Source: Pseudomonadota bacterium (GTDB lineage Bacteria; Pseudomonadota; Alphaproteobacteria; JACQOE01). Taken from it: a stretch of DNA of 64,000 nucleotides. Made by a program: the position numbers and the translations under genes. The DNA lies in the NCBI GenBank assembly GCA_016202695.1, contig JACQOE010000023.1, forward strand, positions 10,354 to 74,353, given 5' to 3'. This document shows positions 9,352-38,010 of this stretch, piece after piece. Under the pieces are notes generated by a model. It searched no databases. It was not told where the DNA came from and saw only the letters and a list, made by a program, of their open reading frames with translations. Numbering within the stretch: position 1 is the first letter of the stretch; each line of letters begins with the position of its first letter.

Positions 9352-9687
9352 ATGCTCTATCTCACCCGCAAGATCGGCGAATCGATCGTCATCAACGACG
9401 ACATCGAGATCACCGTCATCGACGTGCGCGGCAAGACGATCAAGCTCGGCTTCACCTTCCCCTCGGACGTGACCGTGCTGCGCCGCGAGATTTACGAGCG
9501 CATCCAGGCCGAGAACCGCGCCGCCGCCGAGGCAAGCCAGCACCTCAGCGAATCGATGGCGGCGCAGGCGCCTGCGGCGCGCGCGAACGTCGCCAAGGCG
9601 GCGGGCGCGGCCCAGGGCGCGCCCGAGGGCGAGGGCGAGCCGCGGCAGGCCGGAGACGGCCGCCCGGCGGGCGGCACCCTTCCCTGA
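9352..9687 (+). CDS. csrA: Carbon storage regulator CsrA (flagellar type) with ~45-aa Ala/Gly/Pro-rich C-terminal extension
   Basis: [51 protein letters not shown] is a canonical CsrA fold sequence. 111 aa total. Confidence 0.9.
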
Positions 9688-11606: not shown

Positions 11607-12455
11607 TCAGGCGTCGGCGAGAAGCCTGCGGATCGCCGGCGGGTGGTGGAACGCGGCGGCGTGGAACTCGGGGCTATAGTAGCGGGTCTCGACCTTGGCC
11701 GCGGCAACGCGCGCCCTCAGCACCGCCGGGTCGAAGGGCAGGTAGTGCCGGCCCTTCACCGCCCAGCCATAGGCCATCGGCCCGCCGATGTAGGAGGGCA
11801 CCCCCGAGAGATAGCAGCTCGCCTCGTCGAACAGGCCGCGGAAGCAGCGGTAGGACTCCTGCAGCTCGGCCGGCTGCAGGTAGGGTACGCCGTTCTGGGT
11901 CACCAGCACGCCACCCTCGCTCAGGCGGTCGCGGCAGGCGGCGTAGAAGTCCGGGGTGAACAGCACCGCCCCCGGCCCCTGCGGATCGGTCGAGTCGACG
12001 ATGATCACGTCGAAGCTCTGCGCGGTCTCGTGGACGAACTTGATGCCGTCGGTGATGAGGAGCCGGGTGCGCGGATCGTCGAAGGCGCCAGCCGAGATCG
12101 TCGGCAGGTACTCGAGCGAGAGGTCGATCACCTTGCGGTCGATCTCGACCATGGTGACCGTCTCGACCGGATGCTTGAGCGCCTCGCGCAGGCAACCACC
12201 GTCGCCGCCGCCGATGATCAGCACCCGCCGGGCGGCGCCGTGCCCGAAGAGGGGCACGTGCACGATCGCCTCGTGGTAGAAGAACTCGTCGCGCTCGGTG
12301 GTCTGGATGACGCCGTCGAGCGCCAGCACCCGCCCGAAGAACGGGGTCTCGAAGATCACCAGCTCCTGGAGCCCGGTCCTTTCCCTGTAGACCTCGCGGG
12401 TGACCCGGAAACGCTGCCGCAAATGGGCGTGGAGCGTCTCCTCGAACCAGGTCAC
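11607..12455 (-). CDS. speE: Spermidine synthase
   Basis: GTG 12455 overlaps the speD stop (GTGA). LIIGGGDGG, VTMVEIDRKVIDLS, DVIIVDSTDPQGP motifs. 282 aa. Confidence 0.9.
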   Translation of the reverse strand: MTWFEETLHAHLRQRFRVTREVYRERTGLQELVIFETPFFGRVLALDGVIQTTERDEFFYHEAIVHVPLFGHGAARRVLIIGGGDGGCLREALKHPVETVTMVEIDRKVIDLSLEYLPTISAGAFDDPRTRLLITDGIKFVHETAQSFDVIIVDSTDPQGPGAVLFTPDFYAACRDRLSEGGVLVTQNGVPYLQPAELQESYRCFRGLFDEASCYLSGVPSYIGGPMAYGWAVKGRHYLPFDPAVLRARVAAAKVETRYYSPEFHAAAFHHPPAIRRLLADA

Positions 12456-21269: not shown

Positions 21270-21333
21270 GGCCTTGCCTCGCACGCTCCTTGCCCGCGCC
21301 CGCCGATACTAGGGCGGGCGGGTTAACGAGAGG

Positions 21334-21350: not shown

Positions 21351-21518
21351 CCCGCCACCGCCGCGGCGAGAGCCACCGGGGCACGGGCCGGCGGGCGCGT
21401 CGCGGCCGGCTTTCAGGTTAACACAGAGATAGGGGTCCGCCCCCGGGGGATTTCAAGGGCGCGGCGAAGGCGCCCGCGGAGCGGCTCGGCCGGGCCCGCC
21501 CCGGCCCCCCCCCGGACG

Positions 21519-21576
21519 GGCAGTTTCTACCCGGCAAAGCCTGCCGAAAACGCCGCCGAGGGCGGCAGGATCTGTT
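21519..21576. promoter_or_regulatory. Cluster of three ftr-like palindromes (putative FlbD enhancer) in the fliL/flgF divergent region
   Basis: GGCAG-TTT-CTACC at 21519-21531. GGCAA-AGC-CTGCC at 21533-21545. GGCAG-GAT-CTGTT at 21564-21576. Confidence 0.5.
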
Positions 21577-21620
21577 CGCCGGCCAGACCATAGCCATTTG
21601 ATTTCGCTAAATTTTCCCAC

Positions 21621-21636
21621 TGGCACAAGGCATGCA
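21621..21636 (+). promoter_or_regulatory. sigma54 (-24/-12) promoter of flgF-flgG-flgA-flgH
   Basis: TGGCAC-AAGGC-ATGCA with GG/GC spacing as in the TGGCAC-N5-TTGCA consensus. About 73 nt upstream of the flgF ATG. Confidence 0.7.
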
Positions 21637-23263: not shown

Positions 23264-24277
23264 ATGATCATCCGTCTCATCCTCGCCGTCCTCTTCGGCC
23301 TCGCCCTCGGCTTCGCGGGGGGCGCGCCGCTCGGGCTGCGCAACGCCCACGCCGCGGCGCCCTCGGCCCAGGCCGCGGCCCAGGCGGGGACGCCCGCCTA
23401 CCTCAACGAGCAGGTGATGGTCAGCGACGGGCTGGTGCGGCTCGGCGACCTCTTCGCCAACGTCCCCGCCGAGCGGGCGGGAATCGCCGTCGGCTACGCC
23501 CCCGCCCCGGGCAGGCGCGCCATCTTCGACGTCCGCTGGCTGCTCAGTGTCGCCCGCAGCTACCGGATCGACTGGCGCCCGACCAGCCGCTACGACCGGG
23601 TGATCGTGGAGCGCGCGAGCCAGATCGTCTCGGGCCGCGAGATCGAGGAGGCCGTGCGCCAGGCCCTCGCCAAGAGCGGTCTCGGCCCCGACATCGACGT
23701 CCACCTCTCCCAGACCCAGCTCGAGCTGCACATCCCAAAGGAGGCCGATCCCACCATCCTGGTCGAGGACCTCGCCCAGGACGAGCCCAGCGGGCGCTTC
23801 AGTGCCGCCGTCGTCGTCTCGCCGAACTCGCCGCAGGCGGTGCGCACACGTATCGCCGGGCGGGTGAGCCGACTGGTCGAGGTCCCGGTCCCGGCCCAGA
23901 ACGTCGCCCCCGGCGCCGTCATCCGGCAGGACGACGTCCGCTGGCTCAAGCTCCCGGCCGAACGCCTGACGCGGAACGTGGTGACCGACGCCTCCGAGCT
24001 GATCGGCAAGGCCGCCAAGCGGGCGCTGCGCGCCGACGCGCCGGTGCAGGTCGCCGACATCCAGCGCCCGGTGCTGGTGGCCAAGGGAAGCCTGGTGACC
24101 ATCGTCCTCACCACCCCCTCTATGAGCCTCACCGCCCAGGGCAAAGCGCTGGAGGACGGCGCCGACGGCGACACCATCCCGGTGATGAACACCCGCAGCC
24201 GCAGGGTGCTCGACGCCATGGTCGCGGGCAGCGGCCAGGTGCGGGTGGTGCCCGCCCTCAGGCTCGTCAGCCAGTAG
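23264..24277 (+). CDS. flgA: Flagellar P-ring assembly chaperone FlgA (long form)
   Basis: Signal peptide. C-terminal SAF-like VLVAKGSLVTIVL...LTAQGKALEDGADGDTIPVMNTRSRRVLDAMV. Position between flgG and flgH. Confidence 0.8.
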   Translation: MIIRLILAVLFGLALGFAGGAPLGLRNAHAAAPSAQAAAQAGTPAYLNEQVMVSDGLVRLGDLFANVPAERAGIAVGYAPAPGRRAIFDVRWLLSVARSYRIDWRPTSRYDRVIVERASQIVSGREIEEAVRQALAKSGLGPDIDVHLSQTQLELHIPKEADPTILVEDLAQDEPSGRFSAAVVVSPNSPQAVRTRIAGRVSRLVEVPVPAQNVAPGAVIRQDDVRWLKLPAERLTRNVVTDASELIGKAAKRALRADAPVQVADIQRPVLVAKGSLVTIVLTTPSMSLTAQGKALEDGADGDTIPVMNTRSRRVLDAMVAGSGQVRVVPALRLVSQ

Positions 24278-25755: not shown

Positions 25756-26190
25756 TCAGGCGTAACGGCCGAACTTGGCCAGCTCAACCCGGGCGCGCAA
25801 CTCGATCTCGTCGAGGATGGCGGCGAGGCGAGGGTTGTCGGCGAGTTCGCGGCGGACGCGGACGAGCTTCAACAGCCGCTCGAGCCGGTCCCGCGGGACG
25901 CCGCCGACGACGAGCGCCCGACGGATCTCGTCGAGCTCGTCGAGCATCGCCTCGGCGCGCTGGCGAGCCCGCGCGTTGGCCCGCCCCGCGGTCGCATCGG
26001 GGACCTCCTGGGCGGCGAGGATCGAGTCGACCGCGCCGAGGGGGGCGCTTGCCCCGACCGGCGGCGGCTCGGCGTGGCCGTCGGCCGCTTGACGGAGCGT
26101 CTTCCTGAAGTCGCCACCGCGGGCCTCGCCGGCCTTCTCCGACCGGCGGACCGAGGGCGTGCGCGGCGTATTGACCCCGGTCACCTTCAT
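25756..26190 (-). CDS. fliX: Flagellar assembly regulator FliX
   Basis: MKVTG... N-terminus. C-terminal LAAILDEIELRARVELAKF. Divergent from flgI, as in Caulobacter. Confidence 0.75.
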   Translation of the reverse strand: MKVTGVNTPRTPSVRRSEKAGEARGGDFRKTLRQAADGHAEPPPVGASAPLGAVDSILAAQEVPDATAGRANARARQRAEAMLDELDEIRRALVVGGVPRDRLERLLKLVRVRRELADNPRLAAILDEIELRARVELAKFGRYA

Positions 26191-26409
26191 CGCTGGGGGG
26201 CCCTTGCTTCGGCCGCGCCCGAGGGGGCCCGACCCGCGGCTCGCAGGTGCGTCGCTGCCATTAAGCTTTTATATACGCTTTCCCCCCAACATCAAACGCG
26301 TTTGCGGAGCCCCGCGTCGGCCGACACGGCCTCGGCGCGGGGCGCCGGCGTAGGAGCCCGAAGGCCATGAGATGGGACGGTGTGGCGCGTTCGATCAGGC
26401 CCGGATGGG

Positions 26410-26445
26410 GCGGCAAGAATTGCCGCGCGGCCGGCGACGCTTGCC
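26410..26445. promoter_or_regulatory. ftr-like palindromes upstream of the flgI sigma54 promoter
   Basis: Perfect 17-bp palindrome GCGGCAAGAATTGCCGC at 26410-26426. Second weaker site GGCGA-CGC-TTGCC at 26433-26445. Confidence 0.55.
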
Positions 26446-26520
26446 TAGCCGGCGCCGACAGCGCCTCCTGGCGGGCGAAAGAAATCCTTTCGCCTCAATT
26501 GGTTGTCGATCAGAGCCAAG

Positions 26521-26536
26521 TGGCACGCCCTTCGCA
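26521..26536 (+). promoter_or_regulatory. sigma54 (-24/-12) promoter of the flgI operon
   Basis: TGGCAC-GCCCT-TCGCA with correct GG/GC spacing, about 55 nt upstream of ATG 26591. Confidence 0.7.
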
Positions 26537-31924: not shown

Positions 31925-32017
31925 GGAGCGACGACGATGCACACCCAAGCGGTTTCCGTCCGGGAGGGTCGAGGTTTCGACGATCCCGTCCCCATCCACA
32001 TGAGGAGTGAAGAGTCG

Positions 32018-32521
32018 ATGAAGACTGCCACCGTCCAGGCCAGCCCCGCCTTCGAGGCGGAGGTCGCGGCCGAGCCCTCGGCCGAGGTTCCGGGCTCGAT
32101 CGTCGTCGAGACCCGCTTCGGCGAGATCGAGTTCCAGTGGGACAAGGCCCTCTACATGCCGACCGGCCTGCTCGGCTTCCCCGAGCACCATGCCTTCGGC
32201 CTCGCCAACCTGCCGAACCAGCAGATGTCGCAGTTCAAGCTGCTGCAGTGCCTCACCGATCCCGGCATCTCCTTCATCGTCGCGCCGCTCAACGTCGAGA
32301 GCGGGGCGATCGCCGGGGAGGACCTGGCGAAGGCCGGGGCCTCGCTCGCCATCCTCCGGGGGGACATGACCGTTCTCCTGGTGGTCACGGTGCGCAAGGC
32401 CGAGCAGGGGATCGCCATGACCGTCAACCTGCAGGCGCCGATCATCATCGACATGCGGCGCCAGACGGCGTGGCAGTTCGTCCTGCCCGGCGAGAAGTAC
32501 CCGGTGCAGCGGCCGCTCTGA
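32018..32521 (+). CDS. fliW: Flagellar assembly factor FliW (CsrA antagonist)
   Basis: ATG 32018 preceded by GAGGAG. VETRFGEIEF...GLLGFPEHHAFGL...FKLLQCL...FIVAPL...TVNLQAPIIID pattern. Confidence 0.85.
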   Translation: MKTATVQASPAFEAEVAAEPSAEVPGSIVVETRFGEIEFQWDKALYMPTGLLGFPEHHAFGLANLPNQQMSQFKLLQCLTDPGISFIVAPLNVESGAIAGEDLAKAGASLAILRGDMTVLLVVTVRKAEQGIAMTVNLQAPIIIDMRRQTAWQFVLPGEKYPVQRPL

Positions 32522-32705
32522 GCCGGTCCGGCAGAGGAAGCGGCCTTGACAGGGTCCGGGAGCCCACGAGCGATGCCCAAGTCAATGACGAGCGCCCATC
32601 CAGCGGACGCGCCCCGCCACCGCGGGGCCGGGCCGGCGTGGGGGCCTCGGCGCCCGGCCGGGCGCAGGGACGACGGGCCATCGCCTCGAGGGTCCGTGGG
32701 CCGGC

Positions 32706-32768
32706 GGCAAGTTCTGCCTACCCGGCAAGATTTGCCGGGCAGACGGCGCCCCGCCGGCAGAAATTGCC
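32706..32768. promoter_or_regulatory. Three ftr-like palindromes (putative FlbD enhancer) upstream of the flagellin promoter
   Basis: GGCAA-GTT-CTGCC at 32706-32718. Perfect 19-bp palindrome CCCGGCAAGATTTGCCGGG at 32721-32739. GGCAG-AAA-TTGCC at 32756-32768. Confidence 0.6.
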
Positions 32769-32868
32769 CGGTCCGAACCGCGCCCGAGGGGGTGGGACGG
32801 CGCGCTCGGACTGGCCAATTCCCGGATTCTCCTCGCTTTTCGGAAACCGTCCCGCCCGAGCTTACTTC

Positions 32869-32884
32869 TGGCATTGCTCTTGCA
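32869..32884 (+). promoter_or_regulatory. sigma54 (-24/-12) promoter of the flagellin gene
   Basis: TGGCAT-TGCTC-TTGCA, near-perfect consensus, about 110 nt upstream of ATG 32993. Confidence 0.8.
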
Positions 32885-32940
32885 GTTGTCTTTGGCAGAT
32901 GCCCGCAGTGCGGGCACTGGGAAGCAACGTTGAACCATGT

Positions 32941-32990
32941 TGGCAGGAAGCCAGGCGTAAGCTGTCGCCAGCATTCCACGTAGGAGGTAG
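32941..32990 (+). promoter_or_regulatory. Flagellin 5' leader with two candidate CsrA sites
   Basis: Hairpin TGGC-AGGAA-GCCA (32941-32953) presents GGA in the loop. A second GGA lies within the SD AGGAGG (32982-32987). Confidence 0.5.
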
Positions 32991-32992
32991 CC

Positions 32993-34153
32993 ATGAGTCT
33001 TAACGTCATTTCCAACTTCGCCGCGAACGTCGCCCACCGGAACCTCGTCACTTCCGACATGCAGGCGACCAACTCGCTGGCGAAGCTGTCGGCCGGTTCG
33101 CGCGTCCTGTCCGCCAAGGACGACGCCGCGTCGATGGCGATCGGCTCGCGCCTGCGGGCCGAGGTCGCCTCGCTGTCCACCGCCCAGGTGAACGCCGGGC
33201 AGGCGGTCTCGATGCTGCAGATCGTCGACGGCGCCCTGGGCACCATCGACACGATCCTGGTGCGCATGAAGCAGCTCTCGGTGCAGGCGGCCTCGGAAAA
33301 CCTGTCCAACACCGAGCGCACGTTCCTCTACAACGAGTTCGACGCGCTGCGGACGGAAATCGACCGGCTCGCGGCCGACACCGAGTTCAACAGCGTCAAG
33401 CTCCTGAACGGCACCATCACGCTCACCGGCGGAAGCTTCGGCACCAACATCGAGGCGGCCGACGGGTTCGCGGCCTTCACCTTCAAGCAGAACGCCCCGA
33501 ACGTCAGCGACACCAACAACTTCTCGGTCGCCTACAGCAGCGCCACCGACGTGCTGACGGTGACCAACACCTCGACCGGCCAGGTCGACACGGTGGCGAG
33601 CGTGACCGCGCCTTCGGCCGGCGCCACCTCGGCGGTCGTGTTCTCGAAGTTCGGCCTCACCATCACGCTCTCGAGCAACTTCTCCAACTCCACCGCGATC
33701 TCGGCCAACAACACCTTCACGGTCTCCGCCTCGACCGCGGCGACGACCCTGACCTACAAGATCGGCACCGGGGCGGTGGCGGCCGAGGACGACATCACCA
33801 TCACCCTCGCCCAGGCGACGACCGCGTCCCTCAACGCCAACCTGGCCACGGTCAACTTCGCGACCAGCGTCGCCAACGCCGGCCTCGCGATCGGCTATGT
33901 CGGCTCGGCGATCGACCAGCTCAACACCTCGCGCGCCGATGCTGGTGCGGCGCAGAACCGGCTCGAGTTCGCCACCAACAACATCCGTTCGTCGATGGAG
34001 AACCTCGAGGCCTCGCGCAGCACCCTGTTGGACTTGGACGTGGCACAGGAGATGACCACCTTCACCAGCCGTCAGATCCTGTTGCAGGCGGGCATCTCGA
34101 TGTTGGCCCAGGCCAACCAGCTGCCCCAGAACCTGCTCCGGCTGTTCCAGTAG
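32993..34153 (+). CDS. fliC: Flagellin
   Basis: N-terminal LAKLSAGSRVLSAKDDAASMAIGSRL. C-terminal MTTFTSRQILLQAGISMLAQANQLPQNLLRLFQ. 386 aa. Confidence 0.95.
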   Translation: MSLNVISNFAANVAHRNLVTSDMQATNSLAKLSAGSRVLSAKDDAASMAIGSRLRAEVASLSTAQVNAGQAVSMLQIVDGALGTIDTILVRMKQLSVQAASENLSNTERTFLYNEFDALRTEIDRLAADTEFNSVKLLNGTITLTGGSFGTNIEAADGFAAFTFKQNAPNVSDTNNFSVAYSSATDVLTVTNTSTGQVDTVASVTAPSAGATSAVVFSKFGLTITLSSNFSNSTAISANNTFTVSASTAATTLTYKIGTGAVAAEDDITITLAQATTASLNANLATVNFATSVANAGLAIGYVGSAIDQLNTSRADAGAAQNRLEFATNNIRSSMENLEASRSTLLDLDVAQEMTTFTSRQILLQAGISMLAQANQLPQNLLRLFQ

Positions 34154-34167
34154 GATAGGAGGTAGGC

Positions 34168-34194
34168 GGGAGAGGCGGCGCCGCTGCCTCTCCC
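34168..34194 (+). terminator. Hairpin after flagellin (possible terminator/attenuator, no U-tract)
   Basis: GGGAGAGGC-N9-GCCTCTCCC, a 9-bp perfect stem 15 nt after the stop. Confidence 0.4.
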
Positions 34195-34225
34195 GGCCCC
34201 TCCCACGGCAGGTAGTTGGATTTGA

Positions 34226-34636
34226 ATGGAGGGAAAAATGGAACTCACTCGTGTGGGTCCGAACATTCCCGCCGCATCCGGACAGGCAGCTCGGTCGGTG
34301 GGAACGGCGTCGCCGGCACCGCCGGCGGCCCAGGCTCCGGGCGGAACCAGGGCAGTTACCGAGCAGGTCGTCAACTCCACCGGGGCCTCCTCGCTCGCCG
34401 CCCTTGAGCGGGCGGTGACCCAGGTCCACCGGCACGGGGAGCGGCACCAGGGGGCGACCCTTCCGCCGGACTACAACGTCGAGCTCGCCATCGACGAGGC
34501 GACCGGACGGGTCTACGGCAAGATGGTGAGCAAGGAGACCGGCGAGGTGATCGGTCAGATTCCGTCGCGCGAGATGATGGCGCTCCTCGCCCGGACGCGC
34601 GAGATCCTCGGCCCCCTGCTCGACCAGAGCACATGA
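34226..34636 (+). CDS. flaG: FlaG-family protein (start may be ATG 34238)
   Basis: C-terminal LAIDEATGRVYGKMVSKETGEVIGQIPSREMMALL is the FlaG signature. Located between flagellin and fliD. Confidence 0.8.
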   Translation: MEGKMELTRVGPNIPAASGQAARSVGTASPAPPAAQAPGGTRAVTEQVVNSTGASSLAALERAVTQVHRHGERHQGATLPPDYNVELAIDEATGRVYGKMVSKETGEVIGQIPSREMMALLARTREILGPLLDQST

Positions 34637-37041: not shown

Positions 37042-37059
37042 CCGGACGGAAGGGCGCGG

Positions 37060-37074
37060 TTAACCATTTTTTTA
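37060..37074. promoter_or_regulatory. CtrA-like half-consensus box upstream of fliS
   Basis: TTAA-CCATTTT-TTTA. Shares GTTAACCA-TTTTT with the fliF upstream site at 42571-42585. Confidence 0.25.
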
Positions 37075-37803: not shown

Positions 37804-37872
37804 GGCCCCCCGGCAGGGCGCCCGGCCCGGCCGGCCGACCGCGCCCGGGCGCGCCCGCGAAGCCCGCCGCCC

Positions 37873-37885
37873 GGCACAATCTGCC
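37873..37885. promoter_or_regulatory. ftr-like palindrome upstream of the fliK promoter
   Basis: GGCAC-AAT-CTGCC, about 110 nt upstream of the -24 element at 37995. Confidence 0.4.
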
Positions 37886-37994
37886 CGCCCGGCCCAGAAG
37901 TTCTTGCCCGCGAGGGGGCGGAATTTTCCTTTTCCTGTCTCACGGGCGATTTGAAAAGTTATTTATTTTCATTGAGTTAGATTGATCTTCCCGG

Positions 37995-38010
37995 TGGCCC
38001 GGGGCTTGCT
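37995..38010 (+). promoter_or_regulatory. sigma54 (-24/-12) promoter of fliK-flgD-flgE
   Basis: TGGCCC-GGGGC-TTGCT with correct spacing, about 56 nt upstream of ATG 38066. Preceded by a conspicuous AT-rich tract at 37940-37990. Confidence 0.65.

Follow-up and report, generated by a model that had tools for sequence, protein, structure and literature searches.

Putative FlbD-binding, ftr-type enhancers upstream of a sigma-54 flagellin promoter in an uncultured alphaproteobacterium

Three inverted repeats of the form GGCAR-N3-YTGCC lie 113-163 bp 5' of a TGGCAT-N5-TTGCA element, in the 471-bp gap between the stop codon of fliW (32521) and the ATG of a flagellin gene (32993), within the 64,000-nt stretch of alphaproteobacterial DNA that was analyzed (hereafter the window). 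Analysis of these elements, of the proteins encoded around them and of the corresponding loci across the class points, with a probability that we put at roughly 0.87, to the three dyads being FlbD-binding enhancers of the ftr type, which would act on a sigma-54 promoter transcribing the flagellin-flaG-fliD-fliS genes.

According to the mechanism favored by these observations, sigma-54 RNA polymerase would wait as a closed complex on the TGGCAT-N5-TTGCA element, and FlbD dimers would occupy the three GGCA-N5-TGCC sites, centered 108-158 bp 5' of the -24 element. These dimers would nucleate the active AAA+ ring, contact the polymerase through DNA looping and drive ATP-dependent opening of the promoter, with transcription starting near 32895. 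FlbD binding, activation and the start site are all inferred here, as is the assembly of the three dimers into a single hexamer. FliX would gate FlbD by the completion of the early (MS-ring, switch and export) structure, so that flagellin would be transcribed late, alongside flgFGAH, flgI-flgKL-fliW and fliK-flgD-flgE, which display the same promoter-plus-dyad layout. A leader of about 98 nt would probably add a translational checkpoint involving FliW and CsrA.

Organization of the flagellar gene cluster

Pfam searches reveal one large flagellar cluster in the window, with the order fliM and fliL (reverse strand), flgF-flgG-flgA-flgH, dksA and fliX (reverse strand), flgI followed by a rod-binding-like ORF, an unknown ORF and flgK-flgL-fliW, then flagellin-flaG-fliD-fliS, fliK-flgD-flgE and the long string fliF-fliG-fliH-fliN-motA-flbD-flhA-flhF. 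The positions of the genes and of the predicted control elements are collected in Table 1. A second flagellar system was considered and rejected, as outside the window there are only flagellin paralogs, a fliG paralog and a fragment of the FliF C-terminus. The second fliG paralog (contig C49, 7640-8644; 49% identical) and the fragment resembling the C-terminus of FliF (contig C48, 59929-60279) both lie outside the flagellar cluster.

Table 1. Genes and predicted control elements discussed in the text (positions refer to the window unless a contig is named)
Feature	Position	Strand	Details
csrA	9352-9687	+	TIGR00202, 84 bits (cut-off 70)
flgF control region (predicted)	21516-21636	+	sites 21516-21534 (9.9 bits) and 21530-21548 (19.1 bits); promoter TGGCACAAGGCATGCA, 21621-21636
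fliX	25756-26190	-	Pfam FliX, 118 bits (cut-off 25)
flgI control region (predicted)	26409-26536	+	sites 26409-26427 (19.9 bits) and 26430-26448 (6.0 bits); promoter TGGCACGCCCTTCGCA, 26521-26536
fliW	31937-32521	+	Pfam FliW; closes the flgI operon, immediately 5' of the enhancer array
Putative enhancer site 1, GGCGGCAAGTTCTGCCTAC	32703-32721		core GGCAAGTTCTGCC, 32706-32718; center 158 bp 5' of the -24 GG; 17.8 bits
Putative enhancer site 2, CCCGGCAAGATTTGCCGGG	32721-32739		core GGCAAGATTTGCC, 32724-32736; center 140 bp 5' of the GG; 23.6 bits
Putative enhancer site 3, GCCGGCAGAAATTGCCCGG	32753-32771		core GGCAGAAATTGCC, 32756-32768; center 108 bp 5' of the GG; 20.5 bits
Predicted sigma-54 promoter of flagellin, TGGCAT-N5-TTGCA, TGGCATTGCTCTTGCA	32869-32884	+	-24 GG 32870-71; -12 GC 32882-83
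Predicted flagellin leader, about 98 nt	32895-32992	+	predicted fold: 5' hairpin and TGGC-AGGAA-GCCA hairpin, 32941-32953 (GGA loop)
Flagellin, 386 aa	32993-34153	+	Pfam Flagellin_N, Flagellin_C
fliK-flgD-flgE control region (predicted)	37870-38010	+	site 37870-37888 (16.5 bits); promoter TGGCCCGGGGCTTGCT, 37995-38010
flbD, sigma-54 activator, 460 aa	47757-49139	+	Pfam; NCBIfam NF050807
Flagellin paralog outside the cluster	C21:9024-11231		
Flagellin paralog outside the cluster	C4:54015-54833		
Flagellin paralog outside the cluster	C4:104043-104990		
C13 protein, 261 aa	C13:24050-24835		3' of ftr-like sites and a sigma-54-like promoter

The flagellin promoter and its upstream dyads

The predicted flagellin promoter departs from TGGCAC-N5-TTGCA by a single mismatch and stands 109 nt 5' of the flagellin ATG, predicting a transcription start near 32895, relative to which the centers of the dyads fall at -133 to -183. 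Direct reading of the DNA places the promoter and the three dyads exactly where a sequence-only reading of the window had placed them, and the distance that it had claimed for the dyads, 100-165 bp upstream, agrees with the one found. It had further described the middle copy as embedded in a perfect 19-bp palindrome. The inverted repeat itself stands, with perfect 8-bp arms flanking a 3-nt GAT center, but CCCGGCAAGATTTGCCGGG falls short of a perfect palindrome, since GAT is not self-complementary. Measured between centers, sites 1 and 2 are separated by 18 bp and sites 2 and 3 by 32 bp, the latter being about three helical turns; on account of its 18-bp distance from site 2, site 1 is off helical phase with the other two. 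No IHF-like sequence (WATCAANNNNTTR, with at most one mismatch) was found in 32770-32868, between the flagellin enhancer and the promoter, and an IHF site is an accessory rather than a defining feature of FlbD/ftr-dependent promoters.

The spacer between fliW and flagellin is rich in GC inverted repeats; the ORFs that can be drawn in it were rejected as spurious high-GC frames, and neither the spacer nor the leader matches any Rfam family. As no terminator was found between the two genes, read-through from the flgI operon into flagellin is possible, and the flgI operon itself carries the same promoter-plus-dyad control as flagellin. This opens an alternative account in which the sigma-54 match is not a working promoter, flagellin being transcribed by such read-through or from an unrecognized promoter, and the dyads are there by chance. 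Apart from the terminator-free interval, it could draw on the three flagellin paralogs outside the cluster, which have neither a sigma-54 promoter nor the dyad. However, inspection of 32300-34400 revealed no sigma-70-like promoter, and the flagellin genes of other families share a sigma-54 promoter 100-130 nt 5' of the ATG with dyads upstream, rendering the alternative very unlikely; the counts given below bear on its chance component.

The same layout at flgF, flgI and fliK

When the GG and GC are made mandatory and at least 10 of the 11 consensus letters are required, exactly four sigma-54 matches are recovered in the window, beginning at 21621 (flgF), 26521 (flgI), 32869 (flagellin) and 37995 (fliK), and all four have a dyad 88-163 bp upstream. 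The recurrence of the dyad at the other sigma-54 promoters, as claimed from the sequence alone, was thus borne out in its strict form for flgF and flgI and in a relaxed form for fliK: the fliK dyad (GGCACAATCTGCC, 37873-37885) has a C at position 5 and fits GGCA-N5-TGCC, but not GGCA(A/G). The two sites of the flgI region are 21 bp apart, and the flgF region contains an IHF-like match (at most one mismatch) at 21591-21603.

Frequency of the dyad in the window and the genome

The strict dyad GGCARNNNYTGCC occurs five times in the window, against 0.49 copies expected, and at least five copies were obtained in none of 100 shuffles. The five are confined to three intergenic regions, with three at flagellin and one each at flgF (21533) and flgI (26412). 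Across the 3.36-Mb assembly, which has a G+C content of 71%, there are 15 exact copies, i.e., the five of the cluster and 10 in the other 3.3 Mb, so that the equal frequency elsewhere which the sequence-only reading had named as evidence against its proposal is not seen. Both the genome-wide total and the number outside the cluster are below the approximately 25-35 copies expected from composition, and the motif is therefore rare outside the flagellar cluster.

A further measure was provided by a weight matrix trained only on sites from other genomes, with none from this genome. This matrix yields 12 matches of at least 14 bits in the genome, seven of which are in the window, all 5' of sigma-54 promoters, and its best match in the entire genome is flagellin site 2; random 300-bp stretches of the same genome reach 14 bits with a frequency of 0.0003. 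Taken together, the counts in the window and the genome, the matrix matches and the random stretches exclude a chance origin of the dyads, and the genome-wide scan with its enrichment at flagellar sigma-54 promoters, as proposed from the sequence alone, came out in favor of the FlbD operator. The exact dyads on contigs C16, C92 and C99 and at 11734 of the window were attributed to chance, being in coding DNA, as was that at C5:3362, which is in a low-GC stretch. Sigma-54-like matches on contigs C34, C69, C21 and C22 and at C88:37056 are unproven, being accompanied by neither the dyad nor typical sigma-54 target genes.

Conservation of the control region across Alphaproteobacteria

Of the 201 genomes sampled from the class, 129 encode FliX, and Caulobacter vibrioides is the only control genome in which it was detected, a distribution that identifies the class as Alphaproteobacteria. 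The relatives compared (n=30) all belong to other families of the same class, same-order genomes being absent from the sample. The DNA between fliX and flgI was collected from 110 loci, comprising a set of 30 and a further 80 from named genomes, chosen as those closest to the FliX described here, the latter being mostly Rhodospirillales-like and without Caulobacter; Azospirillum, Dongia, Magnetospirillum, Kordiimonas and Tistlia are among the genera represented. A TGGCAC/T-N5-T[CT]GC promoter directed at flgI is present in 91 of the 110 loci, and in 61 of these 91 an exact GGCA-N5-TGCC is found 40-220 bp (mostly 75-135 bp) 5' of the promoter. A weaker second site is frequent, and the commonest spacing between neighboring sites is 21 bp.

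Circularity was avoided by counting all inverted repeats of the form 4-N(0-10)-4 in the 170 bp upstream of the promoter and in 170 bp of downstream control DNA. In this enumeration GGCA-N5-TGCC ranks first (61/87 loci versus 2/87 in the control DNA), and the next-ranked CGGC-N7-GCCG (31/87) and GCAA-N3-TTGC (22/87) are extensions of the same element. Flagellin genes of other families display this layout as well, with three-site arrays in, among others, the genomes G006 and G009, and hence the triple array is not special to this organism. The motif itself is not particular to it either, and would represent a class-wide FlbD/ftr box.

These observations also bear on a reading of the dyads as purely structural hairpins, such as terminators or attenuators of the flgI...fliW transcript or REP-like GC-rich palindromes, with no role in activation. 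Their location 3' of the fliW stop codon, the abundance of GC inverted repeats in the spacer and a clear hairpin directly after ribBA that adjoins the site on contig C13 (see below) are in keeping with such a role. However, the GGCA and TGCC letters themselves are conserved, beyond mere pairing, in genomes of 33% to 70% G+C; the position of the dyad is set by the sigma-54 promoter and not by the upstream stop codon; the spacer has no T-tract or terminator-like site (none was seen in 32300-34400), and the motif is scarce in the rest of the genome. We accordingly consider a purely structural role highly improbable, and retain the enhancer reading.

A further signal in the fliX-flgI regions (L031-L142) is TTAA-N7-TTAA, the third most enriched inverted repeat (22/87 loci versus 0), which appears to be the CtrA box expected at the divergent fliX promoter. 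In the window, CtrA-like boxes are seen before fliX (TTAA-N7-TATA, 26261-26275) and before fliS (GTTAACCAT, 37052-37068), and GTTAAC half-sites are present between fliL and flgF (21322-21327 and 21417-21422).

The predicted regulators: FlbD, FliX and RpoN

FlbD is known to bind ftr motifs, activating middle and late flagellar genes and repressing early ones, and FliX to inhibit or stimulate it depending on the assembly of early structures (PMC3930126; PMC3096577). ChIP-seq of Caulobacter FlbD shows peaks at class III/IV promoters (PMC4083442). The presence in the window of an FlbD-like enhancer-binding protein and of FliX, both claimed from the sequence alone, was confirmed by domain searches. 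The former combines a weak or atypical receiver domain, in which the acidic pair near the N-terminus is absent, with a sigma-54-interaction (AAA+) domain bearing GAFTGA and a Fis-type HTH. Over residues 1-456, and thus with the HTH included, it matches the NCBIfam FlbD equivalog with 752.5 bits (cut-off 750). The fliX product is recovered by Pfam (Table 1), and the NCBIfam FliX models match it below their cut-offs. Sigma-54 itself (rpoN) is encoded on contig C6.

FlbD is the sole strong match to PF00158 in the assembly, the next matches scoring 21-26 bits. With one activator and one sigma-54, FlbD must serve every sigma-54 promoter that works within the assembled 87% of the genome. NtrC, NtrX and NifA were not found in this 87%-complete assembly. 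In this lineage sigma-54 may serve the flagellum alone, or the missing 13% may encode other activators; at 87% completeness, a second activator could indeed be missing from the assembly. The dyads could then be bound by another regulator from the unassembled part, whether a repressor or a further enhancer-binding protein, and the several sigma-54-like matches elsewhere that have no dyad could point to another activator. Set against this are the status of FlbD as the only strong PF00158 protein and as an equivalog-level ortholog down to its HTH, the restricted occurrence of the dyad in this genome, where few places other than flagellar sigma-54 promoters have it, and its association with fliX and flgI throughout the class. 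Binding by a regulator other than FlbD is hence judged unlikely. The proposal, first made from the sequence alone, that the dyad is the FlbD operator and marks the late flagellar regulon draws support from its enrichment, its position, its class-wide conservation and the equivalog-level match of FlbD.

The flagellin leader and translational control

The predicted leader (Table 1) is suggestive of a further layer of control. The flagellin Shine-Dalgarno sequence, AGGAGG (32982-32987), is partly sequestered in the predicted fold, and together with the GGA hairpin it constitutes a putative pair of CsrA sites. Searches of the 87%-complete genome recovered neither FlbT nor FlaF. Given these GGA sites, the presence of fliW and csrA, and the failure to find FlbT or FlaF, the translation of flagellin looks to be controlled by FliW and CsrA within the FlbD/FliX hierarchy. 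The leaders of the flagellin paralogs outside the cluster also carry GGA hairpins, e.g., CCGGTC-AGGAT-GACCGG on contig C21.

Sites beyond the flagellar cluster and a candidate member of the regulon

Four high-scoring matches of the foreign-site matrix lie outside the flagellar cluster, on contigs C13, C88, C46 and C5, of which the last two are doubtful. On C13, an ftr-like site at 23954 is accompanied by a second one 22 bp away, the two being 80 and 102 bp upstream of the sigma-54-like promoter TGGCATCGGGCTTGCG, which precedes the gene for a 261-aa protein. This protein has no match in Pfam, NCBIfam or PDB. Its homologs, however widely they are disseminated (80 of the 201 sampled Alphaproteobacteria), are all annotated as "hypothetical" and share the conserved core GFWDFLDIINPLQHIPMISTLYREITGD. 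Examination of 19 loci of this family (L143-L162) revealed a sigma-54 promoter before the gene in 17, with an exact GGCA-N5-TGCC 65-105 bp 5' of the promoter in about 12 of the 17. The neighbors of these genes are non-flagellar, ribBA being frequent among them. By virtue of this recurrent arrangement the C13 family is a candidate for an unrecognized member of the FlbD regulon. A broader proposal, which we advance tentatively as possible rather than probable, is that FlbD is the sole sigma-54 activator of the lineage and that GGCA-N5-TGCC marks its whole sigma-54 regulon, with the C13 family included; if this were true, the family would represent an unrecognized late flagellar or envelope component.

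The site on C88 (42706; 20.1 bits) lies about 200 bp 5' of a weak sigma-54 match. Downstream of it (C88:42706-46153) is the gene for a 1072-aa protein with RTX-like repeats, adjoining genes for HlyD- and ABC-type secretion.

Comparison with known sigma-54-dependent systems

The closest parallel is with Caulobacter crescentus, in which the class III/IV operons (flgF, flgI, the hook operon and fljK/fljL) combine sigma-54 promoters, ftr enhancers, FlbD and FliX. The same types of elements and proteins are seen here, and the late operons (rod and rings, flgI, hook and flagellin) would be controlled alike. The sites resemble those of Caulobacter in being partial palindromes of about 19 bp, in multiple copies, roughly 100-160 bp 5' of a -24/-12 promoter; this likeness is one of layout and of proteins. 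A further parallel, coming from the cross-genome comparison, is that the class II side bears CtrA-like boxes of the form TTAA-N7-TTAA. There are also differences. Caulobacter ftr enhancers are roughly 100 bp from the promoter, whereas those of flagellin here are somewhat further upstream. An IHF site lies between enhancer and promoter at several, though not all, Caulobacter promoters; the flagellin promoter described here has no IHF-like site. Further, the flagellin is of the 386-aa type, flbD is embedded in the long fliF-to-flhF string and, as FlbT and FlaF were not found, post-transcriptional control apparently falls to FliW and CsrA.

In its layout the flagellin control region is also comparable to that of enteric glnAp2, where dimers of NtrC bind several dyads 100-150 bp upstream, oligomerize and reach the promoter by looping. 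However, NtrC has a different recognition sequence and is phosphorylated by NtrB, in contrast to the atypical receiver of FlbD and its control by FliX. [quoted passage not shown] FlgR is not known to require an enhancer, and the binding sites of FlrC lie 3' of the promoter, as opposed to the clear upstream dyads of the present system. To our knowledge, the flagellar activator of Campylobacter and Helicobacter is the only such activator of the genome, a state apparently shared by this assembly.

Implications

The control of flagellin in this organism is the well-known FlbD/FliX/sigma-54 late flagellar system in a new lineage, and the known mechanism is left unchanged by these results. What they allow is for the late flagellar regulon to be annotated with confidence in an uncultured member of the Alphaproteobacteria that stands at a great distance from its relatives. 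Across the class, in genomes ranging from 33% to 70% G+C, the FlbD box and its distance from the promoter vary hardly at all, so that one matrix is enough to annotate the late flagellar promoters of metagenome-assembled genomes. The same matrix also flags unannotated members of the regulon, such as the C13 family. Finally, the combination with FliW and CsrA, in the absence of FlbT and FlaF, suggests that the checkpoints acting on flagellin at transcription and at translation are independently exchangeable.
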